Made by a program: the position numbers and the translations under genes. Positions 12,191 to 35,209 of a stretch of 64,000 nucleotides of DNA are shown here, piece after piece. The DNA is from Oscillospiraceae bacterium (GTDB lineage: Bacteria > Bacillota > Clostridia > UMGS1810): positions 276 to 64,275 of the forward strand of contig SVJU01000008.1 of the NCBI GenBank assembly GCA_015068825.1, read 5' to 3'. The notes below the pieces were generated by a model. The model was given only the letters and a program-made list of their open reading frames with translations, was not told the origin of the DNA and ran no database searches. The first letter of the stretch is position 1, and the number at the start of each line of letters is the position of its first letter.

Positions 12191-12218
12191 TTTTATGATG
12201 AAAAATGGGGTAAACACT

Positions 12219-14981
12219 ATGAAAAAAGCAATTGTTTTTTTATTAATATTAACTTTAATTCCTATATATGCTTTTGCTGATGGAGAAGTTTTTCTTGAAG
12301 ATGTTGAAAGCTATTCAGATACTATAACTCCAATTACAATTACAATTGATGACAACACATCAAAACAGCTTGGTGAAACTGACTGGTGGATGATTAAAGG
12401 TACATCGGGTAATCCGCTTAATGCCGGAAAATCAAACGGTGTTATTGTTTATCCAACCTTATCGGTTGTTGAAGAAGATGGTAATAAAGCTTTTAATTTG
12501 ACAGGTGGTTCAGGCGATTATTCATCTTATATAGAAAGAAGACAGGCTGCCCGATATATGGGTAATGGCCTTGCAAATATAAATAATAATTATAAGCTTG
12601 AATATGACTTTGAAAAATCTCAAACAAAATCAACTATTTGTTTTCAGTTTATGATACACAACGGCGGAAAAAACTATTATATTGTTAATATTGCCGGCGA
12701 AAAAACAGGCGGAGCTCCTGTATGGACAGTTGCAAAGATTGTTGATAATGCTGTAGTGGGTGATGTAGTTGTAAAATCACCTGAATCATATTCATCACCA
12801 ACATCTTCTCCCGGTGCAGTGACAACAACCAAAGGACATGTTTCCATTATATCGGATGGTAATGGTGTTATAACTGTTACTCTTACAGGAAAAAGATATG
12901 GCGAAAGCACTCCGTATTCAAGTACACTTACACTTGCTGATTCTGAACCATTTGATATTGATGCAAAAGATACCACAATTGGATTTTTTGTAGGTACTAC
13001 ACAAACAAATTCGCAAATTGATAATATAGCAATTTATGATGTTGAAGAATTTGTAGATTATGAGCCGGGTACGATTTTGTATAAAAATGTATCAGATAAA
13101 GCAAATATAAATGAATTTGAAGAAGCGGTTGTAAGAAGAATTTCAAGTGCATCGCTTGCTAATAAAAAAGTTGAAGTGGTTTTTGAAGATGAAAGCACAT
13201 CTAAAACTTATGAAGCCTCATTTGATGCAAAAGGAAAATGGGTTAATCTTGTTGATTCATCTATGTTTACAAAGGTAACTCTACCTGAAGGTAATGATTA
13301 TTCTGATCTTGCAATTTATGCAATAGCAGAAGAAAACCCTTCTAAGAATCAGCCTATAAAAAGCGAGGCTGTGCATTATTTCCCCAAATTAAGAGGAGAA
13401 ATGGGAAATGATAAATTCACATGGGAATCTTCTGATGAAAATGTTGCAACTGTAGATAAAGGTGTGGTAAAAGGTATAAGAGCAGGCAGTGCAACTATTA
13501 CTGCTACATATAAAGGTGCATCATTAAGCTATGATGTTGTAGTAAAAGGCGAATATGACTATGCACTTGAAGAAGATAAGCTTGATGAATATTTTGCATC
13601 AAAGAAACCTGTTTTTGACGAAATAAACAATGCTTTAAACGAAGATGATGCTTCAAAATTAAAAGCGGTTTTAACAAATACAGGTGAAATAAAAATTGAA
13701 TCTGTTCCCGATATTAATGTAGATATATTATCAGAAACAGAAGATGCCGAAATTGAAAAACTTGTTAATAATCTTATTAGTTACGATGGTTTCAGTTTTG
13801 CTTCTTTAGAAGATTTCAAAACCTTTGAAGATGCCGTTGAGCTTGAACTTGATGTAATTAAATTTGAAAACATTAACGATACACTTATAATAGATGAGTT
13901 GCTTTTAAATAATAACGAATTATTAAAGCTTGATACAGAAAATGAATTTTTTGAAAGATTTAACGAAAAGTGTGTTGTAAATCTTTTGAATAAGGAATAT
14001 GATAATTATGATAACTTGAAAAAATATTTTGCTGATAATATTGTTTTATCAAGTTATAAAGAAATGATTTCGTATTCTGATGTAGAAGATCTTTGTAATA
14101 AAAACCAGAGTATTATAGGATACGATACTACTCATTATGAAGAAGTAAAATGCAGCGATATGTTTACTCAGCTTATTTATTTAAAATCAACAATAGATGA
14201 TGTTTCAGATATAAAGGACTTTATTGATACATATACAAAACCTGTACAGCAACCTTCATACTCGTCTGGCTCGTCAGGTGGCTCAAAAGGCGGCGGTGGC
14301 GGTGGTTCAATTAAGTTTACTCCGAAATATGAAGCCGATACCGAATATGTTAAAGAAGCTGAAAAAGAAACAGCTTCGGAAGTTTCAAAAGAAAAAGAAA
14401 CTATTTACAAGGATTTGGAAAAAGGAACCTGGTACGAAGATTATATTCTTAAACTTGCCGGCAAAAACATTATGAACGGCAACAATGGTTATATAAAACC
14501 TTTGGACAATATCACAAGAGCTGAATTTGTTAAAATGCTTGTTTTGGCAACGGGTACTGTTCTTGGCGAAGAAGATGCCTGTCAGTTTGATGATGTTAGT
14601 GAAAACGACTGGTTTTATGATTATGTAGCTTCTGGCTATGTTAATTCAATTGTTGTAGGAAACGGAAATATGTTTTATCCAAATTCTAATATATCAAGAG
14701 AAGAAATTGCAGTTTTGGTTGACAGGGCAATAAATAATCTTGGTATAGATGTAAAATCAGATTCAATGAATAAAATGTTTGCAGATGAAGAAAACATTTC
14801 TGAATGGGCGTATGCATCTGTTATAAGATGTTCGTCTTACGGAATTATAAACGGATATTCAGATAGTACTTTTGTTCCTGCAGGTTTTGCAACAAGAGCA
14901 GAAAGTGCAAAAATGCTTTCTTGTCTTATTGAAATAATTGATGAAGCGGCGCAAGCAGCATCGGAAACTCAACAAGGTTAG
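12219..14981 (+). CDS. Surface protein: lectin-like domain, Ig-like (Big_2) domain, helical region, Ser/Gly linker, 3 SLH domains
   Basis: Signal peptide; N-domain aligns with the 3449 protein; WESSDENVATVDKGVVKG..GSATITATY (Big_2); SSGSSGGSKGGGGGGS linker; SLH ITRAEF, ISREEIA, ATRAESA. Confidence 0.75.
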   Translation: MKKAIVFLLILTLIPIYAFADGEVFLEDVESYSDTITPITITIDDNTSKQLGETDWWMIKGTSGNPLNAGKSNGVIVYPTLSVVEEDGNKAFNLTGGSGDYSSYIERRQAARYMGNGLANINNNYKLEYDFEKSQTKSTICFQFMIHNGGKNYYIVNIAGEKTGGAPVWTVAKIVDNAVVGDVVVKSPESYSSPTSSPGAVTTTKGHVSIISDGNGVITVTLTGKRYGESTPYSSTLTLADSEPFDIDAKDTTIGFFVGTTQTNSQIDNIAIYDVEEFVDYEPGTILYKNVSDKANINEFEEAVVRRISSASLANKKVEVVFEDESTSKTYEASFDAKGKWVNLVDSSMFTKVTLPEGNDYSDLAIYAIAEENPSKNQPIKSEAVHYFPKLRGEMGNDKFTWESSDENVATVDKGVVKGIRAGSATITATYKGASLSYDVVVKGEYDYALEEDKLDEYFASKKPVFDEINNALNEDDASKLKAVLTNTGEIKIESVPDINVDILSETEDAEIEKLVNNLISYDGFSFASLEDFKTFEDAVELELDVIKFENINDTLIIDELLLNNNELLKLDTENEFFERFNEKCVVNLLNKEYDNYDNLKKYFADNIVLSSYKEMISYSDVEDLCNKNQSIIGYDTTHYEEVKCSDMFTQLIYLKSTIDDVSDIKDFIDTYTKPVQQPSYSSGSSGGSKGGGGGGSIKFTPKYEADTEYVKEAEKETASEVSKEKETIYKDLEKGTWYEDYILKLAGKNIMNGNNGYIKPLDNITRAEFVKMLVLATGTVLGEEDACQFDDVSENDWFYDYVASGYVNSIVVGNGNMFYPNSNISREEIAVLVDRAINNLGIDVKSDSMNKMFADEENISEWAYASVIRCSSYGIINGYSDSTFVPAGFATRAESAKMLSCLIEIIDEAAQAASETQQG

Positions 14982-14994
14982 GGGGAAAACAATT

Positions 14995-15918
14995 ATGAAG
15001 CTTCGTTCCAAACAGATGAGCGAATTAAAAAAAGAAGAAAGAACCTGTTATTTAATGATTATGCTTCCTTTAATTGGTTTTTTCGTATTCAGTATTTATC
15101 CGATTTTCTGGACATTCAGATGGGCTTTTTATTCATATAACGGAATACCATCAGAAACGCTTTTTATTGGGCTGGATAACTTTAAAAAGATGTTTACCAC
15201 AGACCTTGACTACTGGAAGGCATGGGGAAATACACTTTATTATGCAGTTTTAAAAGTACCGTTTGAAATGTGCTTATCGTTATTTATTGCGGTATTACTT
15301 CAGCAAAATATAAAATTAAAAGGCCTTTTCCGTGCTACATATTATCTTCCATGTGTAATAAGTATTGCAATTGTAGGTCTTATGTTTACAAATATGTTCA
15401 GTATAAACGGATTTATTAATTCAATCCTTTTAAAGCTTAATATTATTGATAAGAATTTAGATTGGTTCGGTAACAGACATACAGCAACCTTTATGCTTGC
15501 GGCGGGTGGTATATGGAGCGGATTTGGTATTAATGTTTTATACTTTTTGTCAGCACTTTCAAACATTTCGCCTGAGCTTTACGAAGCTGCTGATGTTGAC
15601 GGTGCAAAAGCATGGACAAAGTTTATCAAAATCACATTACCGCTTATTGCCCCTGTTGCAGTAACAATAGTGCTTTTGGCACTTATTGCCGCACTTGGAT
15701 CAAATGAATATGTAATTTCATTTACAAATGGTGCTCCCGGTGGACAAACCCGTACGGTAATGTCGTATCTTACAACAAAGTTTGTACCCGGATTTACCAC
15801 CAATTCTGAACCTCCTATCGGATACGGATGTTCATTGTCACTTGTTACAACAATGTTGTTTGCATCACTTAGTATTGTATACAATAAAGTAAACAACAAA
15901 GTTAATAGTATTTTTTAG
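14995..15918 (+). CDS. Carbohydrate ABC transporter permease
   Basis: EAA loop ELYEAADVDGA, FIGLDNF, about 6 TM segments. Confidence 0.92.
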   Translation: MKLRSKQMSELKKEERTCYLMIMLPLIGFFVFSIYPIFWTFRWAFYSYNGIPSETLFIGLDNFKKMFTTDLDYWKAWGNTLYYAVLKVPFEMCLSLFIAVLLQQNIKLKGLFRATYYLPCVISIAIVGLMFTNMFSINGFINSILLKLNIIDKNLDWFGNRHTATFMLAAGGIWSGFGINVLYFLSALSNISPELYEAADVDGAKAWTKFIKITLPLIAPVAVTIVLLALIAALGSNEYVISFTNGAPGGQTRTVMSYLTTKFVPGFTTNSEPPIGYGCSLSLVTTMLFASLSIVYNKVNNKVNSIF

Positions 15919-15930
15919 GAGAAGAAAAAT

Positions 15931-16779
15931 ATGAAAGCTATAAAAATTAAAAGATTTTTTATTTATGTTATACTCTTTCTGATATTGTTTGTAACACTTG
16001 TTCCGCTTTTATATACATTTTGTGCATCATTTAAAAGCAATATGGAAATGCTCACAAATCCTGCATCAATGATTCCTGAAAATCCAACTCTGGACAACTA
16101 TATAAAAGTGTGGCAAAGTGAGGATTTCAACTTTTTCAGAATGTATATTAACAGTATTATGTATACACTTGTAAGTGTGTTTACAGCGGTGTTTATTTCT
16201 TCAATGGCAGGTTATGCTTTTGCCGTTGGACGATTTCGATTTAAAAAACTTATATTTACAGCATTTTCGTCACTTCTTTTTATAAAGCTTGGAAGTGTGT
16301 CAATTTATGCAACATTTGATGTTTTAAATCTTTTGCATATAAAACGAAGCTTGTATTCGCTTATGCTTATACACTTGTTTTCGGTACCTGTTGTAAATAT
16401 ATATCTTGTAAGGTCGTTTGTGTTCAGCCTTCCCGGCGGAATTATTGAAGCTGCAAAAATTGATGGTTGCACATTCTTTACAACATTTTTAAGGGTAATC
16501 CTTCCACTTTTAAAGCCGGTACTTGCAACAATTGCAATTCTTTCGTTTAAAAATTCATGGAATGATTATTTAATGCCTACAATATTTACTTTGACAAGAC
16601 CTGAACAAAGAACGGTTATAGTTGGACTTCTGGCACTTAAAAACAGTGATGGTGCAGCTACTAACTGGAATCTTATGCTGGCAGGTTCGGTAGTTTCAAT
16701 GCTGCCGGTTATTATTGCATATATTTGTGCAAATAAATATTTTGTTAACGGTATTGCTGCAGGTGCAGTAAAAGGATAA
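15931..16779 (+). CDS. Carbohydrate ABC transporter permease
   Basis: IIEAAKIDGC EAA loop, SWNDYLMP, LMLAGS. Confidence 0.92.
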   Translation: MKAIKIKRFFIYVILFLILFVTLVPLLYTFCASFKSNMEMLTNPASMIPENPTLDNYIKVWQSEDFNFFRMYINSIMYTLVSVFTAVFISSMAGYAFAVGRFRFKKLIFTAFSSLLFIKLGSVSIYATFDVLNLLHIKRSLYSLMLIHLFSVPVVNIYLVRSFVFSLPGGIIEAAKIDGCTFFTTFLRVILPLLKPVLATIAILSFKNSWNDYLMPTIFTLTRPEQRTVIVGLLALKNSDGAATNWNLMLAGSVVSMLPVIIAYICANKYFVNGIAAGAVKG

Positions 16780-16804
16780 TAAATAACAAAAAAGGAGAAA
16801 AATT

Positions 16805-18196
16805 ATGAAAAATTGGGTGAAAAGAATTTTTGGTATGATGGTTGTAGTTGCACTTTGTGTTTCGCTGTTTGCAGGATGCGGACAGGAAGCTAATGTTGCA
16901 GGTGATGCACAAAGAATTACAATCTGGACAACTGCATCTTCAAGTAAAGCAGTTTATGATGAGCTTATTAAAGAGTACAACGAAGGTCAGGGTAAAAAAG
17001 ACGGAGTTTATCTTGATTATCAGGTAAAACCCGGTGATTCTTTAAAAACAAACCTTGAGCTTGCACTTCAGACAGGTGATGCTCCTGATATGTTTGAAGG
17101 TGGTTCAATTAAAAAAATGATTGAACAGAATCAGGTTTGTGCAATAAGCGATTTACCCGGCGGTGAAGAGTTTTTAAAATACTATCGTGAAAACGATATG
17201 CTTGCTAATGAAGCAACCGATTTTAACGGTAAAACTTATGTAGTGCCAAGAAGTGCTACTGTAAGAGCATTAATATACAATAAAGATATGTTTAAAGCTG
17301 CTGGTATAGTAGATGAAAATGGTGAAGCTAAACCTCCCAAAACCTATGCTGAAATGATTGAATATGCTAAAAAGCTTACAGATCCAGCTAAAAATCAGTA
17401 CGGATATATTCTTCCTTTAAAATGGACAGGCTGGTTTGGTTCTGATGTAAGAAATGTTGCTCAGGCATCTATCGGACACATTGGCTATGTTATGCAGGAA
17501 GATAAGTTTGATTATAAAGGTATGGCTCCGATTTTGGAAACATACACAACAATGTTTAAAGACGGAAGCTGTATGCCAGGTTGTGAAAGTATTGACAACG
17601 ACCAGGCAAGAGCATACTTTGCAGCAGGAAACATTGGTATGAAAATGGCATTCTCATTTGATGTTGGTGTATTAAACGACCAGTTCCCTGCAACTTGCGA
17701 CTGGGGTGTTGCACCTGTTCCTGTGCTTGATGAAAACAATACTTATTATCAGCCTTTAGGTTATTCATATTCTTATAACATCAATGCTGAATCTGCTAAA
17801 AAATACGGCGACAAAATTATGAAAGCTATGGAGTTTTTCTGCAGTAACGAATTTTTGGCTGATTGTTACAGACTTGGTGTAACTATTCCTGTAAAACCCG
17901 AAGTTATTGCAAGTGTAAAATTTGATGATAAAGTAAAAACAGGCTGGATGGAGTTTGCAAATCTTGTTGCTGATTCAAGATATACAGGTCTTAGCCCGAG
18001 TCTTGATTCATCTAACCTTAAAGACCTACACACAAGATTTGTTGAAGAAGTATTCAACGGTGACAAGAGTGCTCTTCAGATGCTTACAGAATACGATAAT
18101 GATGTAACTAAAGCAACAGATGATTATTACAAAGCACATCCTGATGAAGACAGAAGTATATTTGTTGATAAAACAAGAGATATAAAAATAAAATAA
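16805..18196 (+). CDS. Sugar ABC transporter substrate-binding lipoprotein
   Basis: Lipobox LFAG-C; ALIYNKDMFKAAG; close paralog of 2050..3423. Confidence 0.92.
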   Translation: MKNWVKRIFGMMVVVALCVSLFAGCGQEANVAGDAQRITIWTTASSSKAVYDELIKEYNEGQGKKDGVYLDYQVKPGDSLKTNLELALQTGDAPDMFEGGSIKKMIEQNQVCAISDLPGGEEFLKYYRENDMLANEATDFNGKTYVVPRSATVRALIYNKDMFKAAGIVDENGEAKPPKTYAEMIEYAKKLTDPAKNQYGYILPLKWTGWFGSDVRNVAQASIGHIGYVMQEDKFDYKGMAPILETYTTMFKDGSCMPGCESIDNDQARAYFAAGNIGMKMAFSFDVGVLNDQFPATCDWGVAPVPVLDENNTYYQPLGYSYSYNINAESAKKYGDKIMKAMEFFCSNEFLADCYRLGVTIPVKPEVIASVKFDDKVKTGWMEFANLVADSRYTGLSPSLDSSNLKDLHTRFVEEVFNGDKSALQMLTEYDNDVTKATDDYYKAHPDEDRSIFVDKTRDIKIK

Positions 18197-18268: not shown

Positions 18269-19747
18269 GTGTTATTAACCGCATTTGTAGCATTGTTTAT
18301 AATACTTACTTATATTGCAATCAACTTTAAAAGTAAGCTTACTTATGTTGTCGGCTTATATATTTTCAGTATTATATCAATGATGATTGTTGTTGTTCTT
18401 TACACAACAAAAATATCCACATACAAATTCCCTTTAGAACTTGATTACTCAATATATTTGTTTTTAACCAAAAATTTTAAGCTGACAAACGCAATGGTTG
18501 CGCGTCTTTTAAATTTCAGCTTTGCTTTGTTTTTTATATCAAGCGTTTCGTATGTTAAGGTAATTGGCAAATTAAAAATGTATATAGCACTTATATTTGT
18601 TATGCCGATTGTTTGTTTTTATATAGTAAACGATCCTTATATTACCAAAAAGGTGTTCTTTCTTGCAAACAGCTTTAATAATGAAACAGCAGCACTTTAT
18701 ACAAATGTTCAATTGGTGATAAAAAGGTTTAATACATTTATTTTTGTAGCTTATGCAATATTCCCGGTTTACTATATTGTAAAAAGCTATATCTCCCTTA
18801 AACTAACAAGAGAAAAACGCGATTTATTGATTTCGGTATTTATTATATCACTTATTTTTATATGTGTTTATGCCATATTTGTTTTAGGCCCATATAAATT
18901 TATTATGATGAACAATGTGAATTTTATGAAAATTCCCGTTCATATTCCGCCGGATATAAGTTATGTTTCGGTGCCGATGCTGATTTTGTTTATACTCATA
19001 GTTGTATTGGTGATTATTTTGTTTTGTAAACCATTTGATAATTTTTCGTTCATCAATAAGCTTGAGCTTGCAAATGGTAGTAAATGGCTTGATAAAAACG
19101 TAAATATGATACTTCATATTTATAAAAACGCATTCTGGGGAATTAACCAGTATTTAAAATTTGCACAAGATAACATAGAAGATGTTGAAAAGGCAAAAAA
19201 TAATATTGCAAAAGGACGTGCAATAGCCGAAGAGCATATTGAAATGCTTATTAATATGCAGTCAAAGCTTGATAATTTCAGAAGTAAGGTGAGTTGCTTT
19301 AATATTGATGACTGTATAACAAATGCCCTTGCAAAAACAGGGCTTCCAACCGAAAAAGTTGGTGTGGTTTTTGAAAACTACAATAAAAATATAGAGATTT
19401 TCGGTGATTTTGAACATTTAAGCGAAGCATTTGTAAATTTGTTTTTAAATTCTGTTCAGGCCATTGAAAAATCAAAAAAAGAAGAATCGTATGTAACAAT
19501 TTCAGCACATACCGACCAAAGCTATATACTTATAAGTGTTCAGGATAACGGATGCGGTATTGAAGATGAAGATATTAAAGAGGTTTTTAAACCGTTCTTT
19601 TCTAAAAAGCTTCGTAATAACAGTGGCGGTATAGGTCTTTATTATGTTGATAATGTTATAAAAAATCATTACGGTGAAATAAGTGTAAAGTCAAAGGTAA
19701 ATGAATATACAAGATTTGACATTGTTTTGCCCGCTACAAAAAAATAA
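18269..19747 (+). CDS. Membrane sensor histidine kinase
   Basis: Multi-TM N-terminus; H-box-like LHIYKN; N-box NLFLNSVQAI; G1 QDNGCGI; F-box FKPFFS; G2 GGIGL. Confidence 0.9.
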   Translation: MLLTAFVALFIILTYIAINFKSKLTYVVGLYIFSIISMMIVVVLYTTKISTYKFPLELDYSIYLFLTKNFKLTNAMVARLLNFSFALFFISSVSYVKVIGKLKMYIALIFVMPIVCFYIVNDPYITKKVFFLANSFNNETAALYTNVQLVIKRFNTFIFVAYAIFPVYYIVKSYISLKLTREKRDLLISVFIISLIFICVYAIFVLGPYKFIMMNNVNFMKIPVHIPPDISYVSVPMLILFILIVVLVIILFCKPFDNFSFINKLELANGSKWLDKNVNMILHIYKNAFWGINQYLKFAQDNIEDVEKAKNNIAKGRAIAEEHIEMLINMQSKLDNFRSKVSCFNIDDCITNALAKTGLPTEKVGVVFENYNKNIEIFGDFEHLSEAFVNLFLNSVQAIEKSKKEESYVTISAHTDQSYILISVQDNGCGIEDEDIKEVFKPFFSKKLRNNSGGIGLYYVDNVIKNHYGEISVKSKVNEYTRFDIVLPATKK

Positions 19748-19763
19748 TATTGGAGGGATTGCT

Positions 19764-20441
19764 TTGAAAAAAATAAGAGTTTGTATTTGTGATGATGCAG
19801 AGTACGTATGCGATATTATATCAGAGCATCTCAAAAGTGCGCAGGATATTGAAGTTATCGGCTTTGCTCACGATTCAATTGAAGTTGTTGAGCTTATGGA
19901 AAAAAAGCCCGATATACTTTTACTTGATATACAAATGGAAAGCGATATGGCAGGAATTGACTGTATCCCAAAAATTTTAGAAAAATCGCCTGATACAAAA
20001 ATTATTATGCTTACAAGCTTTGATAATGAGGATTATGTGTATTCTGCAATGATAAACGGCGCAGTTGATTATATTATCAAAGACGATATGGTAGAAAGAA
20101 TTGTGCCAAAAATAAGAAGTATTTACAATAACGAGGCCGACCTTGACAACGAAACAGTTAATAAATTTGTTAATAAAGCAAGAGAAATTGCAAACAAGCA
20201 TGTAAGCTCGCTTTATCTTGTAAATACACTTATAAAGCTTTCAAATAATGAATATGAGATTTTAAAATCCATTTACGAAGGCGAATCATACGGAGATATT
20301 GCAAAAAAGCGTTATATAGAAGAAATTACTGTGCGTTCAACGGTATCAAGAATACTTAAAAAGTTTGATATGAAAAATATGAAAGATGTTATAAATGCAC
20401 TTAAAGAAACCCAGGTTTTTGAATTAATGGACAGATTTTAA
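19764..20441 (+). CDS. NarL/LuxR-family response regulator
   Basis: GGAGG before TTG 19764; ICDD, LLLDIQM, MLTSF, YIIK receiver motifs; C-terminal LuxR-type HTH. Confidence 0.9.
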   Translation: MKKIRVCICDDAEYVCDIISEHLKSAQDIEVIGFAHDSIEVVELMEKKPDILLLDIQMESDMAGIDCIPKILEKSPDTKIIMLTSFDNEDYVYSAMINGAVDYIIKDDMVERIVPKIRSIYNNEADLDNETVNKFVNKAREIANKHVSSLYLVNTLIKLSNNEYEILKSIYEGESYGDIAKKRYIEEITVRSTVSRILKKFDMKNMKDVINALKETQVFELMDRF

Positions 20442-20470: not shown

Positions 20471-21742
20471 ATGAAGGGTAATAAAGTAAAAATAGGTATC
20501 GTGGGTTTTGGCGAATTTTCGTTAAGTCATGTTGAAATATTTAAAAATCACCCTGATGTTGAATGTGTTGTTGGTGCGGAAATAAATCCCGAAAGACGAA
20601 AATTTGTTGAAGATAAGTTTAAAATAAAGATGTACGAAAGCTTTGATGAAATGCTTGATAAAGAACAAAGTCTTAACAGTGTGGCAGTTTTTTCTCAGCG
20701 TCATCAGCACGGACCTATGATTATTAAGGCTTTAAAAGCCGGAAAAAATGTTTTTACTGCCGTTCCTATGGGTTGCACCGAAGAAGAAATTTTCGAAATT
20801 TTAGACCTTGTAAAGAAAACAGGGCTTACCTTTGCAATGGGTGAAACCTGTTATTATTTTCCGTGTGCTGTGTGGAGCAGAAAACAAAGAAAAAAAGGTG
20901 CATTCGGTACTGTTACTTATGGCGAAGCTCAGTATTATCATGATATAACCGAAATGTTTGCTTCGTTTGCTTCGGTGGGCGACGGATATAAAAGAATTGC
21001 AGGTATTCCGCCAATGTTTTACGGAACACATTCAGCATCTATGCTTATTTCTGCAATGGGTGATATTCCTACTGAAGTTGCGTGCTTTGGCTATGTTGAC
21101 AAAGTGGGCGATGATATTTACGGAAAAGGCAAAAACGACTGGGATAATCCGTTTTCTAATGAAACTGCAATAGTGCGTTTTAAAAACGGTGCACTTGGCA
21201 GACTTAATGAATTCAGACGAATTGGTGGTGTAAAACCATCAAGTTTTATAACAGGTATTTACGGTACAAAAGCATCTTATGAATGTAGCGGAAATCAACA
21301 TCTTTTATCAATAGGCGGTGTTTTTGGACAAACACCTGATTCTATAAATGTAAGTGATGAAATTAATACTCTCACTTTTACTGAAAATAAAAATAATATG
21401 GATTTGAAAGACGGAAGATTGCACTATAAATATCATTGTGGATTTTCGCCTGTTCACGATGCACAAAGGCTTCCTGAAATTTTCAGAAAAATGGCAGAAG
21501 AGTCAAGAAAAAGAGACGACCTTTCGGTAATAGGCCATAACGGCTCGCACTTTTTCTGTGTAGACGATTTTGTAAAAGCAGTTGTAGAAGATAAAATTCC
21601 GCCGATAAATGCTTGGAATTCGGCTATTTACACATTAACAGGAATTAAAGCACACGAAAGCAGTATGCAAGGCGGAAAAATTGTAGCAATTCCTGATGTT
21701 GGCAAGTTGCCGTCTGATAAGGAGATTATTGATGAAGATTAG
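20471..21742 (+). CDS. Gfo/Idh/MocA-family oxidoreductase
   Basis: KIGIVGFGEFS Rossmann motif; ALKAGKNVFTAVP, where the usual EKP is replaced by AVP. Confidence 0.85.
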   Translation: MKGNKVKIGIVGFGEFSLSHVEIFKNHPDVECVVGAEINPERRKFVEDKFKIKMYESFDEMLDKEQSLNSVAVFSQRHQHGPMIIKALKAGKNVFTAVPMGCTEEEIFEILDLVKKTGLTFAMGETCYYFPCAVWSRKQRKKGAFGTVTYGEAQYYHDITEMFASFASVGDGYKRIAGIPPMFYGTHSASMLISAMGDIPTEVACFGYVDKVGDDIYGKGKNDWDNPFSNETAIVRFKNGALGRLNEFRRIGGVKPSSFITGIYGTKASYECSGNQHLLSIGGVFGQTPDSINVSDEINTLTFTENKNNMDLKDGRLHYKYHCGFSPVHDAQRLPEIFRKMAEESRKRDDLSVIGHNGSHFFCVDDFVKAVVEDKIPPINAWNSAIYTLTGIKAHESSMQGGKIVAIPDVGKLPSDKEIIDED

Positions 21743-22523: not shown

Positions 22524-24737
22524 ATGCTTTCATACGCCGACAGATTAAAAATAATGCGTGATACAAAAATAAGACATACATTGGAAAAAAGGGACCAGAA
22601 TGGCTATACCGACCTTGACGATTTTGGAACTGTTCCCATAACACCCGATTACGAGGTTGAGCCGTATTATAACAGTGAGAACGGAAGTTTTTACGGATAC
22701 GACGGTATGAGCGAAAATTTTGTAAGAGTAATCAATGCACATCCTGCGTATGTTGACCCAATGGAAATGCTTTGCGCAAGATGGCGTGATATGCTTGTAA
22801 ATTACCGCGGCGACCTTCATTATATGCCCGATTGGTTAAAAAATAAGCCAAAAACAATAGCGCTTATGAAAAGCGTTACAAACCAGTGGAGTAAACGCTG
22901 GGACGAACAACGCTTTCCGTATGATGATTTAAAACCATTGCAGAAAAAATATAACATACAAACAGGAATAGACGGTGATGCGCATTTAGCATGTGATTAC
23001 CGTATTGGTTTTGAGCTTGGATTTGGCGGTCTTTTAGAAAAAATAAAAAAATACCGCGACATAAACAAAGATAAAAAAGACTTTTACGATGCTGAAGAAA
23101 AGGTGCTTCTGGCAATAATTGATTTTGTGCAAAAGCACATTGACGAAATAGAAAGGCTGTTAAAAGAAGAAAAAAGACCTGAAATAGTAAAAAGTCTTGA
23201 AGAAATGCTGATGGTTAATAAAAACATAAAATACGGCGCACCAAAAACATTTTACGAGGTGTGTCAGTGGACTGCGTATTTTAACTGTGCATCAAGAATT
23301 TATACCCGTGACGGTGCAGGCTTTCAGCTTGATACACTTTTGTATCCTTACTACGAAAACGATATAAAAAACGGAATACTTGATGATGAAAAAGCAAAAT
23401 TTTTAATTGCAAATCTTCTTTTAATAGATCCGCATTATTATCAGATTTCGGGTGTTGACGAAAACGATAACGATATGACAAACAAGCTTACATATCTTAT
23501 TTTAGATGCGGCTGACAGTATAAATATTTCTTGCAATTTAACGGTAAGAGTACATAAAAACTGCGATAAAAATCTTCTTAAAAAAGCAATATATTATCTT
23601 TTGAAAAACAAAAACGGCTGGCCGAGATTTTGTAATGATGATGCTCTTTCAGAAGGGTATATGAAAAACGGTGTTGACAAAAAAACCGCACGCGAAAGAA
23701 TTGCGGTTGGATGCAACTGGATGTGCGTTCCAGGTAAGGAATTTCCTATGAACGACACTGTTAAAATCAATATTGCAAAGGTTTTTGAAGTTGCACTTAA
23801 TGAAATGAAAAACGACCAGAATAAGTCGGTTGAAAAGCTTTATGAAATTTACAAAAAGCATCTTAAAGAGGCAATAAGAGTAACTGCAGACGGAATAAAT
23901 CTTCATATAGAGCATCAGTGGGAGGTAACCCCCGAGCTTGTTATGAACCTTATGATGGAAGATACCATTGAAAAGGGCGAAGATATTTCAAGGTGTGCAA
24001 AGCTTTATACAGTTGGCGTTGACGGAATAGGCCTTGCTGTTGTTGCAGATTCTTTTGGTGCGCTTGAAACAAGGGTTGAAAAAGAAAATGTTCTTACATG
24101 GGACGAAGTATATGTGGCTCTCGAAAACAATTTTGAAGATGAAAGAGTGCGTTTAATACTAAATTCTACCCCAAAATACTGCCACGGAAATACTGTTTCG
24201 GATGCGTGGGCAAAAAAGCTTACAGAAAGCTGGGTAGAAGGAATAAAATCACATAAAATGCCGCAGGGCAGAACTCTTGTTCCGGGGTGGTTCAGCTGGG
24301 CAAGAACCATTGAATACGGAAAGGCAGTAGGTGCAACGCCAAATGGCAGAAGAAAGCAGGAACCTGTTTCACATGGGGCAAACCCAAATCCGCATTTCAG
24401 AAGTGACGGAGCTGTGACTGCACAATCAAACGGTATTGCATCAGTTCAGTGCGGATACGGCAATACTGCACCGCTTCAAATTGAATTTGACCCTGATATC
24501 AATATCGAAAACGGTGGCGTAGATATAATAGAGAATTTTATTCTTGGCCATTTTGAGCAGGGCGGAACATTGATAAATATTAATATTTTAGATAAAGAAA
24601 AACTTATAGAAGCAAACAAAAATCCTGATTTGCATCCTGATTTGGTTGTAAGAGTTACAGGCTTTACTGCGTATTTTGCAAGCTTGTCGCCCCAGTTTCG
24701 GCAGCTTGTTGTAGACAGATTTTTAACCGGAATATAA
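22524..24737 (+). CDS. Glycyl radical enzyme (PFL/GRE superfamily), substrate unknown
   Basis: Gly loop LVVRVTGFTAYF (Gly713); Cys loop AVGCNWMC (Cys397); LLYPYY; GATPNGRR..PVSHG. Confidence 0.88.
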   Translation: MLSYADRLKIMRDTKIRHTLEKRDQNGYTDLDDFGTVPITPDYEVEPYYNSENGSFYGYDGMSENFVRVINAHPAYVDPMEMLCARWRDMLVNYRGDLHYMPDWLKNKPKTIALMKSVTNQWSKRWDEQRFPYDDLKPLQKKYNIQTGIDGDAHLACDYRIGFELGFGGLLEKIKKYRDINKDKKDFYDAEEKVLLAIIDFVQKHIDEIERLLKEEKRPEIVKSLEEMLMVNKNIKYGAPKTFYEVCQWTAYFNCASRIYTRDGAGFQLDTLLYPYYENDIKNGILDDEKAKFLIANLLLIDPHYYQISGVDENDNDMTNKLTYLILDAADSINISCNLTVRVHKNCDKNLLKKAIYYLLKNKNGWPRFCNDDALSEGYMKNGVDKKTARERIAVGCNWMCVPGKEFPMNDTVKINIAKVFEVALNEMKNDQNKSVEKLYEIYKKHLKEAIRVTADGINLHIEHQWEVTPELVMNLMMEDTIEKGEDISRCAKLYTVGVDGIGLAVVADSFGALETRVEKENVLTWDEVYVALENNFEDERVRLILNSTPKYCHGNTVSDAWAKKLTESWVEGIKSHKMPQGRTLVPGWFSWARTIEYGKAVGATPNGRRKQEPVSHGANPNPHFRSDGAVTAQSNGIASVQCGYGNTAPLQIEFDPDINIENGGVDIIENFILGHFEQGGTLININILDKEKLIEANKNPDLHPDLVVRVTGFTAYFASLSPQFRQLVVDRFLTGI

Positions 24738-24753: not shown

Positions 24754-25833
24754 ATGTTTAAAGTTTGCATTATAAGCTGTGGAATGATTGCCAATAGCGC
24801 GCATATCCCTGCATATAAAATGTTTTCGGATGATTACAAAATAGTTGCGGTTTGCGATACAAACGAAAATGCCGCAAAAGAAACCGCACAAAGACACGGT
24901 ATACTAAATTACTATACAGATGCTAAAAAAATGCTTGATGAACAAAAGCCTGATTTAGTTTCGGTTTGTGTTCCGAATGCTTTTCATAAAGAATACACCA
25001 TTATGGCGTTAAACAGTGGAGCAAATGTGCTTTGCGAAAAGCCGCTGGCGGTAACATATAAAGATGCAGTTGAAATGTTTGATATTGCAAAAAAGAATAA
25101 TAAAATTCTTATGGCTTGTCAGAGTATGCGTTTTACTCCCGACAGAATTGCTGCTAAAAAATACATTGAAAAAATGGGCGCTGATGATATATACTACGGC
25201 GAATTTTCAAGAATAAGAAGACGCGGAATACCTTTCTGGGGAGCATTTCACATAAAAAAAGTAAGCTGTGGCGGAGCCTTTTTGGATATAGGAGTACATA
25301 TGCTCGACGAGCTTGTATACCTTATGGGCAATAAAAAGGTAAAATCTGTGCGTGCAGTAACAGGAAAGAATCATAAGCACGAAATAGGCTCACTTGAAAA
25401 AAGCGGTGCACTTACAGGTAAAGTTGATATAGCAAGAAAGTTTAATCCTGATGAAATGGATGTAGAAGATTTTTCAGCAGGTATTATAACCTTTGAAAAC
25501 GGCGCAGTTGTTAATTTTAAAGTTGCGTGGGCGGCAAATTTGCCAGAGGAAACAAGTATTAAATTTTCTGCAACAAGATGGGGAATGGAGCTTCCTTGTG
25601 CAAAGGTGTATCAGGGGGCGGATAACGAAGAAAATCTTGAAGTTGAAAAATGCCCTTATGACAGTGTTTTCCCAGGGCATATATACATTTTAGATAATTT
25701 AAGAAAAGCATTAAAGGGTGAGGAAGAATTAATTGTAAAGAGCGAAGAAACAATTAATGTTTCTGCAATAATTGATTTGTTCTATAAATCAGCCCAGCTT
25801 AAAAGAGAAGTGTTTATGGAGGAAATTTTGTAA
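24754..25833 (+). CDS. Gfo/Idh/MocA-family oxidoreductase
   Basis: CIISCGMIA, VLCEKP, GGAFLDIGVH. Confidence 0.9.
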   Translation: MFKVCIISCGMIANSAHIPAYKMFSDDYKIVAVCDTNENAAKETAQRHGILNYYTDAKKMLDEQKPDLVSVCVPNAFHKEYTIMALNSGANVLCEKPLAVTYKDAVEMFDIAKKNNKILMACQSMRFTPDRIAAKKYIEKMGADDIYYGEFSRIRRRGIPFWGAFHIKKVSCGGAFLDIGVHMLDELVYLMGNKKVKSVRAVTGKNHKHEIGSLEKSGALTGKVDIARKFNPDEMDVEDFSAGIITFENGAVVNFKVAWAANLPEETSIKFSATRWGMELPCAKVYQGADNEENLEVEKCPYDSVFPGHIYILDNLRKALKGEEELIVKSEETINVSAIIDLFYKSAQLKREVFMEEIL

Positions 25834-26933
25834 TGATAAAAGCTGTAATAATAGGTTTTTCACATATGCATGTTAACGAGGTTGCACTATATCTGAGCGA
25901 ACAGAAGGATTTTGAGCTTATAGGTGCAGCAGAAGTAAAATCCAATCTGGAGGACATTGATCCATTAAGATATACACCAAAGTGGAATCTTGAAAATGTA
26001 AGAGAAAACTACTGTAATGTAATTTATACAGATTACAAAAAAATGCTTGATGAGTTAAAACCCGATATGGCATTTATACTTTCAGAAAATTGTCAGAAGC
26101 CCGAAATTGTTAATGAATGTGCAAAACGAAAAATAAATGTCTGCATTGAAAAACCAATAGCGGTGAGCTTAAAAGAGGCAAAAAAAATTAAAAAGTCTGT
26201 TGAAAAATATAAAATAAATGCAGTTGTGAACTGGCCGGTTGTGTGGCGTGAATATGTTCACAGAATGAAAAATGCTTTGGATTTAAAACTTGTTGGAGAA
26301 CCGGTAAAATTAAGATATATTAATGGTCATACAGGGCCTTTGGGAAAAGGTGCAAAGCACAGGGGAGTTAGCGAAAACGCACAGGAAATGACAGATTTTG
26401 AGCGTTCAAAAACCTGGTGGCACTCTCTTTCGCACGGCGGCGGAGTATTTTTGGATATAAGCTGTTACGGATGTCTTTTTTCAAAGTGGTTTTTGGGTGA
26501 TGGCGAAAAAAGTGTTTTATCGCATGGTGCAAATTTAAATACACCTTTTGGCGATACCGAAGATAACTTTGCATCAATTATTAAATATGACGATAAAATG
26601 TCGGTTATAGAAGGCACATGGACTACTCCAAGGGCGGTTATTCCGTCAGGACCTATGGTGGTTTGCACCGAAGGGGTAATAATGTGCACAGGCGGTGCCG
26701 AAAATGAGCCTGATGTAAAGGCGTTTGATATATACGGTAACGAAGTTGAAATTCCAAAAACAGAGTTTGACGAAAAATATAAAAATATGCCATATCATTA
26801 TGCAAATCACATTAATACAGGCGAAGATATACACAATATGCTTACACTTGATATAAATATAGAGATAATGGCTATTATGGACGCTTTAATCAAAAGCTCA
26901 AAAACAAAAAAAGAAGAAAAAATCAAGGGGTAA
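25833..26933 (+). CDS. Gfo/Idh/MocA-family oxidoreductase
   Basis: VCIEKP, GGGVFLDISCY; start overlaps the upstream stop (TAATG). Confidence 0.85.
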   Translation: MIKAVIIGFSHMHVNEVALYLSEQKDFELIGAAEVKSNLEDIDPLRYTPKWNLENVRENYCNVIYTDYKKMLDELKPDMAFILSENCQKPEIVNECAKRKINVCIEKPIAVSLKEAKKIKKSVEKYKINAVVNWPVVWREYVHRMKNALDLKLVGEPVKLRYINGHTGPLGKGAKHRGVSENAQEMTDFERSKTWWHSLSHGGGVFLDISCYGCLFSKWFLGDGEKSVLSHGANLNTPFGDTEDNFASIIKYDDKMSVIEGTWTTPRAVIPSGPMVVCTEGVIMCTGGAENEPDVKAFDIYGNEVEIPKTEFDEKYKNMPYHYANHINTGEDIHNMLTLDINIEIMAIMDALIKSSKTKKEEKIKG

Positions 26934-26939
26934 TGTGTA

Positions 26940-28007
26940 ATGACAGAGAAAATTCCTGAATATATTGACCAGGTTGCTGATGAAGCAATATCAAGAATAA
27001 AAAACTGCAGAATAGATGATAATGCAGTTTCGTTCGCCTTTTTTTCAGATACTCATAATTGCAACACTTATGTTGAAAGAAGCTTATATGCAATCAATAA
27101 AATAAATAAAACAATTCCGATAAAATTTATATGTATCGGCGGAGATTACCTGTGCAATAACTTGCGCACAACACATGATGAAGCATTAAGTCAGTTAAAT
27201 GATTTATCTGAAATTATAAAAAATTATTCATCACATATTCCCACAATGGTTATAAAGGGAAATCACGATGATAATCCGTTTGGAAAAAAAGAAAATGAGA
27301 TAAGCCATAATGAAATTTACGATACAATTATGTCGCACCACAAAGATTTTTTTGTAAGTGATAGCAAAAACGATAAAGCTATGTATGGATATTACGATAT
27401 GCCCGATGAAAAAATCCGTGCAATATATTTAGATGTTTTTGAATTAAAATACACAAAAAATGAAGAAGGACTTTCTTTTCACGAAAGAACAAGTTATGCA
27501 ATATCAAATGACCAGTTGAATTTTATAGCAAACAAAGCATTAAAGCTTCCTCAAAACGACTGGCTGGTTGTGCTTTTTTCACACGCATCGCCCATTATAC
27601 CACCGTTTAAGGAAAGTGAGCATATTTTTGGCGGCGACGCACTTATTGAAATTTTAAAAGCGTTTAAGAATGGCGAAAAATACAGTACAAAAGCTAAAAA
27701 AGGCGATATGTTTTATGATGTGGAATGTGATTTTACAAGTCAGAAAAAAGGTGAAATTGCAGGCTATTTTTGCGGACATCATCATACCGACTTTACATGG
27801 AATGTATGTGGTATTCCTTTTGCGTGTGTTATTCAGGCGGCAAGCGATAACTTTTCAAGACACATCTGCAAAGACGGATACCGTCATTTAAAAGTCAGAG
27901 GGTCCGGTGAAGAAAGTGCATTTGATATAATTTCAATTAATCCATCGTTAAGAAAGGTATCCTGTATACGCTGTGGTGCAGGTTATGATTATAGCTTTTT
28001 TTATTAA
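26940..28007 (+). CDS. Calcineurin-like metallophosphoesterase
   Basis: SDTH, GGD, GNHDDN, FSH and GHHH metal-binding motifs in order. Confidence 0.85.
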   Translation: MTEKIPEYIDQVADEAISRIKNCRIDDNAVSFAFFSDTHNCNTYVERSLYAINKINKTIPIKFICIGGDYLCNNLRTTHDEALSQLNDLSEIIKNYSSHIPTMVIKGNHDDNPFGKKENEISHNEIYDTIMSHHKDFFVSDSKNDKAMYGYYDMPDEKIRAIYLDVFELKYTKNEEGLSFHERTSYAISNDQLNFIANKALKLPQNDWLVVLFSHASPIIPPFKESEHIFGGDALIEILKAFKNGEKYSTKAKKGDMFYDVECDFTSQKKGEIAGYFCGHHHTDFTWNVCGIPFACVIQAASDNFSRHICKDGYRHLKVRGSGEESAFDIISINPSLRKVSCIRCGAGYDYSFFY

Positions 28008-28041
28008 TAATTTTTTATTCAGGGGGGATTTATTATCCCTC

Positions 28042-28070
28042 TTGACATCTTTTAGAAGCAAAAATATACT
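28042..28070 (+). promoter_or_regulatory. Sigma-A promoter for the beta-PGM/GH65 unit
   Basis: TTGACA-N17-TATACT. Confidence 0.75.
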
Positions 28071-30467: not shown

Positions 30468-32624
30468 ATGAGCAATAATGATTATTTAAGAAATGAACCT
30501 TTTTTCTGGTCAAGACTTGGATTTGGATACGACCCTCCAAGATATGACAAAAACAACAATCAGATTATTTTTTCGCGCAACTATGAAAAATACCGAAAAA
30601 CACATAAAGATTTTGAGGATATAAATATAAAATATCATACAACCATATTAAATTCGGGCTGGGTTGATGATAACACCTATGATTATCGTCTTACCGATGA
30701 AACTCTTGATGAAATATTCAAGGATAATCCCAATATTTTTTATATGCCAAGAGTTAAGCTTAATGCACCTCCGGGATGGTGTAAAAATCACCCTGAAGAT
30801 GTTTTTGTATATGAAAAGTATCAGAATCTTTCTTTAAAAGAAATTTCGGATATCTGCACAACCTTAGAGCAGGATTATTTTGGTTTTGATTGCCCCAACG
30901 GTTATTCTGTAAATGGCGGTGATGGCTCGTTTGTTGATGACAGACCCAATGTCGGCGGAAAAATAGCACTTCAGAGTTTTTCATCTCCACAGTGGATTTT
31001 GGATGCTTCAAAAGCATTATCAAATCTTATTGACCATATAAATAATTCGCCTTACAAAGATAGGATTATAGGATATCATATAGCATACGGTCAGTGCGGC
31101 GAAACTTGCCTTTGGGGAGGCTGGAGGCCTCAAAGCCAGAATTTGAGAGGCGATTTTGGCTATACAAACACAAAAGAGTTTATAAAATACGGCTTGAAAA
31201 AATACAAAACAGAAGAAAATTTACTTAAAAAATGGAATTATAATTCAATGGATGAAATTAAAGTTCCGTCATTAAAACTTCGTGATGCAAAAAAAGATTG
31301 TTTAAGAGATGTTTTTTATGATGAGAGCAATAATCTTATCTGCCTTGATTATAACGAATTTATGTCTGAGGCAAATGCTTTTGCGTGCGAAGAATTTTGC
31401 CGTGTGGTAAAAGAAAAATCCGATAATAAACTTGCAGCGGGAATATTTTATGCGTATATGTATATGCTACAGTCGGCGTATATGGGACATCTTGCAATCG
31501 ACAAGGTTATGGATTCGCCATACATTGATTTTGTTGCATCGCCAAAAGCATATTTCAGAACACTTGCAGGTGAGCCCGGCGGTGAGCAGGGACCAAGCTA
31601 TTCTATAAACAAAAAGAAGGTATGGCTTGACGAAATAGACAACTGGACACATCTTGACAGGCGTGAAGGCAAGGCAGAAAATCTTTTTGAAACAAGAACT
31701 CTCATTCTTCGTGAAGGTGTAAAAAACTTATCGTATAATCAGGGCTTCTGGTGGATGGATCTTGGTGAAGGCTGGTATGATATGCCCGAAATAATGGGTT
31801 ATATAAAAGAAATGTATGACGCACAAAATATAATCTATAAAAAAGAGCATAAAAGCATTTCTGAAATACTTATTGTTGTAGATGAAAAATCGTTAAAATC
31901 AATGTCGGTAAGCTATGGCTTGTGTGGTGGACTTTTATACAATCTTCAAAGTGAGATAAAGCTTTGCGGAGCACCCGTTGACACATTAAGATTAAGTGAT
32001 TTATATAATACAGATATTTCGCAGTATAAACTGATTGTTTTTGCAAACGCATTTTCTATTGATGAAAAATTAAGAGAAATTTTAAAGAAAAACGCAAAAG
32101 GAAAAACATATATCTGGAATTATGCGGCAGGAGTGCTTTCGCCAGAGTTTTCTTACGATAATGTATTTGATGTTACAGGCTTTAATATAAACGAATTTAA
32201 GCATTTGTTTGTTGGTGAAGAATTTGGATATAAAATAGAAAAGTATAATTTCGGACCTGTTAAAAGGATTGATATAGATTTTCCTTTGTTTGAAATATTA
32301 CCAAAAGAAAATATAACACCTGTTTCGTACTATCCTGACAAAAAAATAATGTGTGCTATGACTAAAAAAGATGGCGGCGTATCGTATTTGTGCGCATACC
32401 CTTCTATGATGGCATCAGATTTTAGGAAAATAGCTCAGGATGCGGGTTGTAAAATGTATGCACCACTTAACACAACCGTTTATGCGGATAACAGAATTAT
32501 TGGCGTTTTCCCAAAAGACGATGTTTGCTTTAAACTTGATTTCGGAAAGTTTACTTCAAACGGATTAAATTCGGTAAATGTTGATATAAAGGCAAAAGGC
32601 GCAGAGTATTTTGTATTTGATTAA
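30468..32624 (+). CDS. GH42-like (clan GH-A) cytoplasmic glycoside hydrolase
   Basis: YGQCGET, WLDEIDNWTH, FWWMDLG..WY; parallels 3..1931; no signal peptide. Confidence 0.6.
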   Translation: MSNNDYLRNEPFFWSRLGFGYDPPRYDKNNNQIIFSRNYEKYRKTHKDFEDINIKYHTTILNSGWVDDNTYDYRLTDETLDEIFKDNPNIFYMPRVKLNAPPGWCKNHPEDVFVYEKYQNLSLKEISDICTTLEQDYFGFDCPNGYSVNGGDGSFVDDRPNVGGKIALQSFSSPQWILDASKALSNLIDHINNSPYKDRIIGYHIAYGQCGETCLWGGWRPQSQNLRGDFGYTNTKEFIKYGLKKYKTEENLLKKWNYNSMDEIKVPSLKLRDAKKDCLRDVFYDESNNLICLDYNEFMSEANAFACEEFCRVVKEKSDNKLAAGIFYAYMYMLQSAYMGHLAIDKVMDSPYIDFVASPKAYFRTLAGEPGGEQGPSYSINKKKVWLDEIDNWTHLDRREGKAENLFETRTLILREGVKNLSYNQGFWWMDLGEGWYDMPEIMGYIKEMYDAQNIIYKKEHKSISEILIVVDEKSLKSMSVSYGLCGGLLYNLQSEIKLCGAPVDTLRLSDLYNTDISQYKLIVFANAFSIDEKLREILKKNAKGKTYIWNYAAGVLSPEFSYDNVFDVTGFNINEFKHLFVGEEFGYKIEKYNFGPVKRIDIDFPLFEILPKENITPVSYYPDKKIMCAMTKKDGGVSYLCAYPSMMASDFRKIAQDAGCKMYAPLNTTVYADNRIIGVFPKDDVCFKLDFGKFTSNGLNSVNVDIKAKGAEYFVFD

Positions 32625-34245: not shown

Positions 34246-34279
34246 AAAAAAATCACTGCCCATACGGCAGTGATTTTTT
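34246..34279. terminator. Bidirectional intrinsic terminator
   Basis: AAAAAAATCACTGCC-cata-CGGCAGTGATTTTTT. Confidence 0.8.
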
Positions 34280-35090: not shown

Positions 35091-35137
35091 AAAATCACCT
35101 CAGGTCAAAATAATGCTAATATAAGTCATAACAATTC

Positions 35138-35167: not shown

Positions 35168-35209
35168 GAATTTATTAAAATGTCAAATAAAATCGGGAGG
35201 GAAAGTAAA

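Follow-up and report, generated by a model that had tools for sequence, protein, structure and literature searches.

A glycyl radical enzyme with tryptophan at the Cys-loop glutamate position in a sugar-oxidoreductase operon of an Oscillospiraceae bacterium

The stretch of 64,000 nucleotides analyzed here (the window; contig SVJU01000008.1 of the Oscillospiraceae assembly GCA_015068825.1) carries a gene for an oxygen-sensitive glycyl radical enzyme (GRE) whose Cys loop has Trp at a position of consequence. The protein belongs to what we call the C-x-W clade, a large, uncharacterized, monophyletic GRE lineage that spans phyla and is defined by a Glu-to-Trp change. The clade breaks the one rule common to all characterized eliminase- and isomerase-type GREs, i.e., the Glu of the Cys-x-Glu (CXE) motif. 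We read the gene as encoding a functional C-x-W GRE within a sugar-oxidoreductase operon, with radical C-O cleavage on a neutral sugar, anhydro-sugar, or cyclitol as its reaction, and assign to this statement as a whole a probability of about 0.55. We hold with high confidence what was observed directly, namely, the intact GRE fold and motifs, the clade identity, the conserved synteny, the purifying selection, and the absence of a cognate activase. The specific C-O cleavage mechanism, of dehydratase or ring-opening type, is offered tentatively. The enzyme probably performs an undescribed anaerobic step in the breakdown of a sugar-like compound.

GREs perform chemistry that is otherwise out of reach of anaerobes, and newly assigned classes (CutC, HypD, IslA, YbiW/PflD) have each exposed an important gut pathway. 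The C-x-W clade occurs commonly in Clostridia from the guts of humans and herbivores, has relatives in Bacteroidota, Spirochaetota, Planctomycetota, and Verrucomicrobiota, and is consistently tied to sugar dehydrogenases. Assignment of its function would probably uncover a new anaerobic carbohydrate or cyclitol pathway along with new GRE acid-base catalysis. Since C-x-W enzymes have cultured hosts (Qingrenia yutianensis, Neglectibacter timonensis, Hominenteromicrobium mulieris), the question is directly testable. The present analysis adds a Glu471/Asp411 signature for the clade, a quantified core of Gfo/Idh/MocA oxidoreductase (GFO3), activase, and GRE genes, a flavoprotein/NanA-like context, the spread across phyla, and the loss of the activase in this genome together with a likely trans-activator.

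Fold, motifs, and selection

The GRE gene and its diagnostic sites are as follows.

22524..24737, + strand: GRE, member of the C-x-W clade, 737 aa (open reading frame, Pfam, structural model, Foldseek, substitution rates)
22983..22985, + strand: codon of His154, aligned to His164 of glycerol dehydratase (HMMER alignment)
23319..23354, + strand: GFQLDTLLYPYY, the motif region where many GREs read GRxDQYLYP (translation)
23703..23735, + strand: Cys loop AVGCNWMCVPG, with Cys397 (predicted thiyl site), Asn398, Trp399 (position of the CXE Glu), and Cys401 (second Cys, at +4) (translation, alignment)
23754..23756, + strand: codon of Asp411 (Cys+14), aligned to Asp447 of glycerol dehydratase (HMMER alignment)
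23934..23936, + strand: codon of Glu471, clade-specific invariant acid and candidate relocated base (clade alignment)
24648..24671, + strand: Gly loop VRVTGFTA, which carries the radical site Gly713 (translation, Pfam)

A GGAG ribosome-binding site precedes the ATG start codon of the reading frame by about 10 nt. Pfam matched the protein to the PFL-like (PF02901, 9.6e-93) and Gly_radical (PF01228, 2.8e-12) families, and the fold, the Gly loop, and a catalytic Cys on the Cys loop all place it in the pyruvate formate-lyase (PFL)-like GRE superfamily. A sequence-only reading made earlier of the same DNA had reported an intact Gly loop (RVTGF, Gly713), the Cys loop GC397NWMC, and GFQLDTLLYPYY, and translation bore out all three at their sites.

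The AlphaFold2 model, built on 34 homologs, reached a predicted local distance difference test value (pLDDT) of 90.9 and a predicted template modeling score (pTM) of 0.91. Foldseek ranked propanediol and glycerol dehydratases, PflD, HplG, HypD, and CutC as near equals (TM score, 0.80-0.84; about 20% identity), the top scores of 0.83-0.84 belonging to the GRE dehydratases, PflD, and HplG. By sequence, the closest solved relatives are A. fulgidus PFL2 (2f3o, 1.4e-53), glycerol dehydratase (1r8w, 5e-50), and PflD, and identity to the best solved structures is about 20-26%. Every NCBIfam GRE model scored far under its own cut-off (PFL2-3, 277 bits versus 678; HypD, 198 versus 1100; HpfG, 200 versus 1000; CutC, 145 versus 1050; the PFL model TIGR01255, 75 versus 994). 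With these scores and identities, and with its place in a separate clade, the protein does not cluster at high identity with any characterized GRE; such clustering is what the sequence-only reading had named as one outcome that would undo its proposal.

HMMER alignment to glycerol dehydratase 1r8w pairs Cys397 with Cys433, Trp399 with Glu435, His154 with His164, and Asp411 with Asp447. Glu471 aligns with Leu519 of that enzyme and sits in a loop past the long helix 436-468 of the model. Having no CXE motif, the GRE lies outside the eliminase and isomerase classes, yet it may work like those enzymes. It also lies outside the formate lyases, as the sequence C397-N-W-M-C401 contains no adjacent Cys-Cys pair. 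The gene is under strong purifying selection: the ratio of nonsynonymous to synonymous substitution rates (dN/dS), approximate because dS is saturated, was 0.04-0.08 against five orthologs, and dN was no larger than among other orthologs.

A clade defined by Trp at the CXE position

An exhaustive HMMER search covered 1.84 billion representatives of 50%-identity clusters. The clade alignment contained 98 sequences, namely, 92 near-full-length matches, the query, and five other GREs of the genome; the tree was rooted on the genome's own PFL, and residues were counted over 97 sequences (26 C-x-W and 71 other GREs). C-x-W occurs in 26 of these 97 PFL2-like sequences, which form a monophyletic group with a support of 1.0. 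Trp399 is present in 26/26 clade members versus 0/71 other GREs. Glu471 is similarly confined (100% of the clade versus 1% elsewhere) and was not found in the sister groups GCNQ and GCGQ of the clade alignment. Asp411 (100% versus 23% of other GREs) and Glu406 (92% versus 20%) are likewise enriched. His154 is kept in about 88-90% of both C-x-W and C-x-E GREs, and the positions of Gly713 and the catalytic Cys397 are invariant across the 97 representatives. The clade signature is G-C-x-W, Asp at Cys+14, Glu471, which is carried by a P-E-L motif, and RVTG, and the query has all of these.

Among 120 homologs of at least 77% identity, GCNWMC, Glu406, Asp411, and Glu471 are invariant, and His154 is kept in 119. 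RVTGFTA is kept as well, with one homolog reading RVTGFAA. Invariance of GCNWMC and RVTGFTA on this scale indicates that the loop sequence is no chance feature. Cys401 is invariant within the orthologous group but not clade-wide, where its position is mostly Ser or Ala; Cys401 was thus rejected as a clade-wide catalytic residue.

Species-representative genomes were also scanned with the clade profile, which gave at least 599 pattern matches. Among the matches listed were 80 loci, with a readable GRE open reading frame in 70, and all 70 of these relatives carry GC[NHS]WM. They come from about seven phyla (Bacillota, Bacteroidota, Spirochaetota, Planctomycetota, Verrucomicrobiota, Lentisphaerota, and Chlorobiota), and those listed for Bacteroidota include a B. 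thetaiotaomicron metagenome-assembled genome (MAG) and Alistipes. The cultured species Neglectibacter timonensis and Hominenteromicrobium mulieris are also among these relatives. One cluster representative (P0131, 1052 aa) is a natural fusion of a radical S-adenosylmethionine (SAM) activase with a C-x-W GRE reading GCNWFC.

According to a June-2026 review of GREs, all characterized C-O, C-N, and C-S eliminases and three isomerases keep a substrate-bound CXE Glu, and whole GRE clades are without experimental validation (PMC13450708). This rule, together with the alignment of Trp399 to Glu435, sustains the earlier argument that Trp at the Glu position speaks against the known eliminase activities. 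The C-x-W class is not described in that review, and full-text literature searches found no account of the clade.

Operon structure and conserved neighborhood

The genes around the GRE, including the triosephosphate isomerase (TIM) barrel protein and the transporter and regulator genes upstream, are listed below.

14938..18196, + strand: CUT1-type ABC transporter, two permeases and a solute-binding protein, upstream of the operon
18269..20441, + strand: histidine kinase and LuxR-type response regulator, upstream of the operon
20471..21742, + strand: GFO1, long (423 aa), atypical Gfo/Idh/MocA oxidoreductase (paralog in a cassette on contig C29)
21732..22481, + strand: Hyi/OtnI-like TIM barrel of xylose-isomerase fold; the open reading frame opens at 21696 (homolog alignment, NCBIfam)
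24754..25833, + strand: GFO2, DgpA-like (glycoside 3-oxidoreductase-like) Gfo/Idh/MocA protein (match to PDB 7xr9)
25833..26933, + strand: GFO3, divergent Gfo/Idh/MocA protein, apart from the activase the best-conserved partner of the GRE (orthologous loci)
26940..28007, + strand: calcineurin-like metallophosphoesterase, last gene of the operon (homology), at the end where orthologous operons hold the activase and GRE
28019..28045, + strand: predicted terminator-like hairpin with an 11-bp stem that closes the operon (consensus scan)
28042..28070: predicted promoter-like site after the hairpin (consensus scan)

All the neighbors named by the sequence-only reading were found, i.e., three Gfo/Idh/MocA enzymes, a Hyi-like isomerase, a phosphoesterase, and, upstream, an ABC system and a two-component pair. 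From GFO1 through the phosphoesterase, adjacent genes overlap by up to 47 nt or lie at most 42 nt apart, and this tight packing, together with the terminator-like hairpin, argues that these genes form one operon. As just 29 nt separate the end of the response regulator gene from GFO1, the operon may begin in the regulator genes. Homologs of the TIM barrel align only from the ATG at 21732, which is therefore the probable true start and gives a protein of 249 aa that overlaps GFO1 by 11 rather than 47 nt. NCBIfam scored the TIM barrel at 154 bits as hydroxypyruvate isomerase (cut-off, 353) and at 132 bits as 2-oxo-tetronate isomerase, and a weaker match was to the 3-keto-glucoside 4-epimerase YcjR. 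GFO2 matches DgpA (PDB 7xr9) over its full length (E, 3.5e-47) and has the EKP and D-x3-H motifs, and GFO3 gave weak PDB and NCBIfam matches only. No microcompartment, diol-pathway, phosphotransferase system (PTS), kinase, or aldolase genes accompany the GRE in the window.

Orthologous loci numbered 68 (69-82% identity), all of them from gut MAGs or isolates of Clostridia (humans, ruminants, deer, rabbit, chicken), and 56 had enough upstream sequence to be evaluated. The radical-SAM activase lies immediately 5' of the GRE in 52 of the 56 and at most 1.3 kb away, with a flavoprotein gene inserted, in two more, for a total of 54. A GFO3 ortholog sits directly 5' of the activase in 47, any Gfo/Idh/MocA gene occurs within 8 kb in 54, and GFO1 plus the TIM barrel is present in 11. 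The commonest layout has an AraC regulator ahead of GFO-GFO-GFO-GFO3-activase-GRE; in Qingrenia and others, AraC precedes GFO1-TIM-GFO2-GFO3-activase-GRE. The conserved core is thus GFO3-activase-GRE, usually under an AraC regulator, and genome-neighborhood conservation, proposed earlier as a check, was borne out by this core. The sugar-operon context survives in part: the Gfo/Idh/MocA link is kept over the 56 loci and in the cassette of a 48%-identical paralog on C29, but the phosphoesterase, the ABC transporter, and the two-component pair had no match beside the GRE in the 68 orthologous loci and were rejected as conserved partners.

In the wider family, 70 listed loci across phyla showed an activase upstream in 57, Gfo/Idh/MocA genes in 31, and AraC in 18; in 13 of them the next gene downstream encodes a 260-aa cupin, and 12 have a phosphomannose isomerase (PMI)-like cupin. 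More distant members have ribose-type or CUT1 ABC transporters, ROK regulators, or URO-D-like proteins nearby. No kinase, PTS, or microcompartment gene is conserved as a partner in the orthologous or wider loci. Conserved partners that are sugar enzymes and transporters, with no kinase or PTS among them, point to free, unphosphorylated sugar-like compounds.

Next to the GRE, 18 of the 68 loci have a geranylgeranyl-reductase-like flavoprotein. The closest database homolog (86% identity) and one other locus have the order sialidase-like propeller, activase, GRE, flavoprotein, NanA-like aldolase. These contexts (L117 and L118, with homologs 86% and 77% identical) contain no Gfo/Idh/MocA gene, and L117 includes a YhcH anomerase; they hint at sialic-acid-like or keto-deoxy sugar acids.

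URO-D-like genes (uroporphyrinogen decarboxylase/methyltransferase family) flank the distant C-x-W GREs of L101 and L102 (GCFW subclade, P0156) and of the P0126 locus, and those of L101 lie inside a CUT1 sugar-transporter operon.

The lost activase and the paralogs of this genome

The assembly is a 2.0-Mb draft in 62 contigs and is about 96% complete. It encodes six PFL-fold GREs; an activase adjoins five of them, and the window GRE is the only one without. A dedicated radical-SAM activase was not found in the 64-kb window, and a tblastn search of the entire assembly with the orthologous activase matched only the activases of other GREs, with no remnant in the window. This absence leaves some weight with the second outcome that the sequence-only reading had named as refuting, namely, a protein on which no glycyl radical can be installed. 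The operon order here is GFO1-TIM-GRE-GFO2-GFO3-phosphoesterase versus the canonical GFO1-TIM-GFO2-GFO3-activase-GRE. Genomes of the same genus, whose activases are 77-100% identical to that of Q. yutianensis, retain GFO3-activase-GRE.

The paralogous cassette (C29:1256-9265) reads activase, GRE (48% identical, GCHWMC), 258-aa cupin, PMI-like cupin, TIM barrel, GFO, and long GFO, and the same cupin and PMI-like pair also follows related GREs in 12-13 listed loci of other phyla. The window GRE and the C29 paralog have exactly the same Gly-loop 7-mer, RVTGFTA, and documented cases of GRE cross-activation involve identical or near-identical 7-mers (PMC13450708, section 2.5). Judged from this shared 7-mer, activation of the window GRE in trans by the C29 activase is plausible.

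Three further GREs of this genome (C35:108-2396, C45:18062-20227, and C11:64-2115) are PFL2-like and have Trp-containing Cys loops that read GCWG, GCWE, and ACWE, respectively. Each has its own adjacent activase, and all fall outside the C-x-W clade in the tree. The canonical PFL and PflA are on contig C12.

Proposed chemistry and competing explanations

The class of substrate, C-O cleavage as the reaction, the parts played by individual residues, and trans-activation are all inferred, along the following lines. A radical-SAM activase, for which the enzyme encoded at C29:1256-2155 is the likely substitute for the cognate one, would put the radical on Gly713, from which it would move to Cys397. 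The substrate, a neutral sugar, anhydro-sugar, or cyclitol with a sugar-like six-membered ring, would stack on Trp399 and lose a carbinol hydrogen to the Cys397 thiyl. An adjacent C-O bond, to a hydroxyl or to a ring or ether oxygen, would then be eliminated, with His154 as the putative acid and a carboxylate other than the CXE Glu as the base (Asp411, Glu406, or the clade-specific Glu471 being candidates). The resulting keto-deoxy or ring-opened product may be reduced or converted further by GFO3 and other dehydrogenases. Four lines of evidence suggest this model: the fold likeness to diol dehydratases, PflD, and YbiW; the retention of His154 and Asp411; the dehydrogenase partner; and the stacking ability of Trp, which stacks on pyranose rings.

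Glycerol dehydratase (1r8w) and 1,2-propanediol dehydratase (5i2g, 9rco) are the best structural matches and align over the full length (E, 5e-50). Their His164 and Asp447 equivalents are kept as His154 and Asp411, and their carbonyl product normally passes to a dehydrogenase, much as the GRE is accompanied by its GFO partners. The GRE departs from them in having Trp399 for Glu435 and GFQLD for GRxDQ, in being 50-100 residues shorter, and in lying in a separate clade and in neither a microcompartment nor a diol operon. YbiW and PflD, the ring-opening isomerases of 1,5-anhydroglucitol-6-phosphate and 1,5-anhydromannitol-6-phosphate ("anhydroglycolysis"), have the same PFL2-type fold (8yjo, 8id0, 8id7; TM score, 0.83-0.84). 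They resemble the proposed system in their six-membered sugar-derived ring substrates, their carbohydrate operons, and a thiyl chemistry that begins at a carbinol carbon. However, both keep CXE, with its Glu hydrogen-bonded to a substrate hydroxyl, whereas the window GRE has Trp instead and is about 20% identical to them. Their substrates are phosphorylated and their operons carry PTS and aldolase genes, whereas the window GRE has NAD-dependent Gfo/Idh/MocA partners and no conserved kinase, PTS, or phosphate-handling partner.

DgpA and the 3-keto-glycoside pathways (C-glycoside deglycosylation, levoglucosan Lgd, E. coli ycjQRS) offer a further comparison, in that GFO2 is DgpA-like over its full length and the TIM barrel, although closest to Hyi/OtnI-type isomerases, is related to keto-sugar isomerases and epimerases that include YcjR. 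A GH65 gene lies close to the operon, as one does in the E. coli ycj cluster. Those pathways contain no radical enzyme, unlike the window operon, and no DgpB or DgpC chain was among the PDB matches of the TIM barrel.

Several points weigh against radical C-O cleavage by a functional enzyme. The usual CXE base is gone, and any replacement base near Cys397 is a candidate only; Glu471 aligns with a position that is not known to belong to the active site in solved GREs. Neighborhoods are heterogeneous, and some homologs of 77-86% identity have a propeller, a flavoprotein, and a NanA-like aldolase in place of GFO genes. No evidence singles out the substrate of the C-x-W GRE: as the contexts of close homologs differ, none is favored among inositol (from an IolG/IolE-like pairing), C-glycosides (from GFO2), 1,5-anhydro-sugars, unsaturated uronates, and sialic-acid derivatives. 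The cognate activase is missing from an assembly that is about 96% complete, the best match (C29:1256-2155) being 43% identical. Finally, saturated dS would hide a recent relaxation of constraint on the GRE.

The loss of the acid-base Glu that dehydratase chemistry requires is also what lends some appeal to a PFL-like C-C lyase, an alternative that we consider unlikely. Here, GFO enzymes would turn a sugar or cyclitol into a ketone or 1,2-diketone, the thiyl of Cys397 would add to the carbonyl, and beta-scission would open the ring or split the chain, with Cys401 as a relay. Several dehydrogenases that could supply the carbonyl accompany the GRE, and both cysteines of GCNWMC are invariant in 120 orthologs and recur in the C29 paralog and several distant members. 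PFL enzymes proper (PflB, TdcE) share the GRE fold, the Gly-loop logic, and two cysteines in the Cys loop region. Yet the cysteines of the window GRE lie at i and i+4 rather than next to each other, only the C-terminal third aligns with PFL (E, 4.5e-17), and the PFL model gave 75 bits against its cut-off of 994. The annotated loci showed no partner that depends on CoA or transfers acyl groups. Above all, most of the clade has Ser or Ala in place of the second Cys while Trp399, Asp411, and Glu471 are invariant, and Cys401 therefore cannot belong to the core mechanism of the clade.

Another explanation concerns this genome rather than the clade: with its operon rearranged and its cognate activase lost, the GRE might be a stranded remnant that receives no radical. 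The order found here, set against the GFO3-activase-GRE retained in same-genus genomes, fits such a history, as do the lack of any activase ortholog above 43% identity in the assembly and the rarity of loci without an activase (only 2 of the 56 others). A decayed gene would be hard to reconcile with an intact frame holding all clade-invariant residues, with a dN/dS of 0.04-0.08 and a dN not raised over that between orthologs, and with a tight placement in a compact operon. The genome also encodes four other GRE activases, one of which serves the paralog with the identical Gly-loop 7-mer, and the assembly is a draft of 62 contigs. On balance, we regard a nonactivatable remnant as distinctly unlikely.

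Reductive dehydroxylation of the ribonucleotide reductase type is improbable. After water loss, the substrate radical would be reduced via Cys397 and Cys401, with electrons from the neighboring NAD- or FAD-dependent oxidoreductases. Orthologs keep the Cys pair without exception and the neighbors are all redox enzymes, including the geranylgeranyl-reductase-like flavoprotein of 18 loci, but the pair is not kept clade-wide, no thioredoxin-like or formate-linked partner was seen, and no PFL-like GRE working in this manner is described in PMC13450708.

A known activity behind a divergent Cys loop, i.e., that of glycerol or propanediol dehydratase or of the anhydrohexitol-phosphate isomerases PflD and YbiW, is very improbable: these enzymes are the closest folds (TM score, 0.83-0.84) and glycerol dehydratase shares His154 and Asp411, but the class-defining Glu is replaced by an invariant Trp, identity is about 20-26%, equivalog scores fall far below cut-offs, the clade is separate and fully supported, and microcompartment, diol-pathway, PTS, kinase, and aldolase genes are absent here.

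The C-x-W enzymes could form a new mechanistic class of GREs, in which an invariant Trp would replace Glu as a stacking platform, the acid-base role would fall to Glu471 and/or Asp411, and a Gfo/Idh/MocA enzyme would be an obligate partner. Such a class would define an anaerobic route, so far undescribed, by which many anaerobe species of about seven phyla, including major gut lineages, process a common sugar-like compound (anhydro-sugar, cyclitol, or keto-sugar). We see this broader proposal as possible, at a little short of even odds.

Other genes in the window

Downstream of the operon, positions 34278-36996 hold a minus-strand AraC regulator gene and genes for a TIM barrel resembling xylose isomerase (35180-36025) and for a Gfo/Idh/MocA oxidoreductase (36022-36996), followed by a CE2 esterase and another CUT1 ABC system. 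Large proteins with S-layer-homology domains or no Pfam domain (633, 742, 980, 541, 928, and 718 aa) are encoded at 3434-14981 and 30468-32624, where they flank sugar transporters and genes of families GH65 and GH130. These flanking proteins may be unrecognized cell-surface enzymes of glycan degradation.

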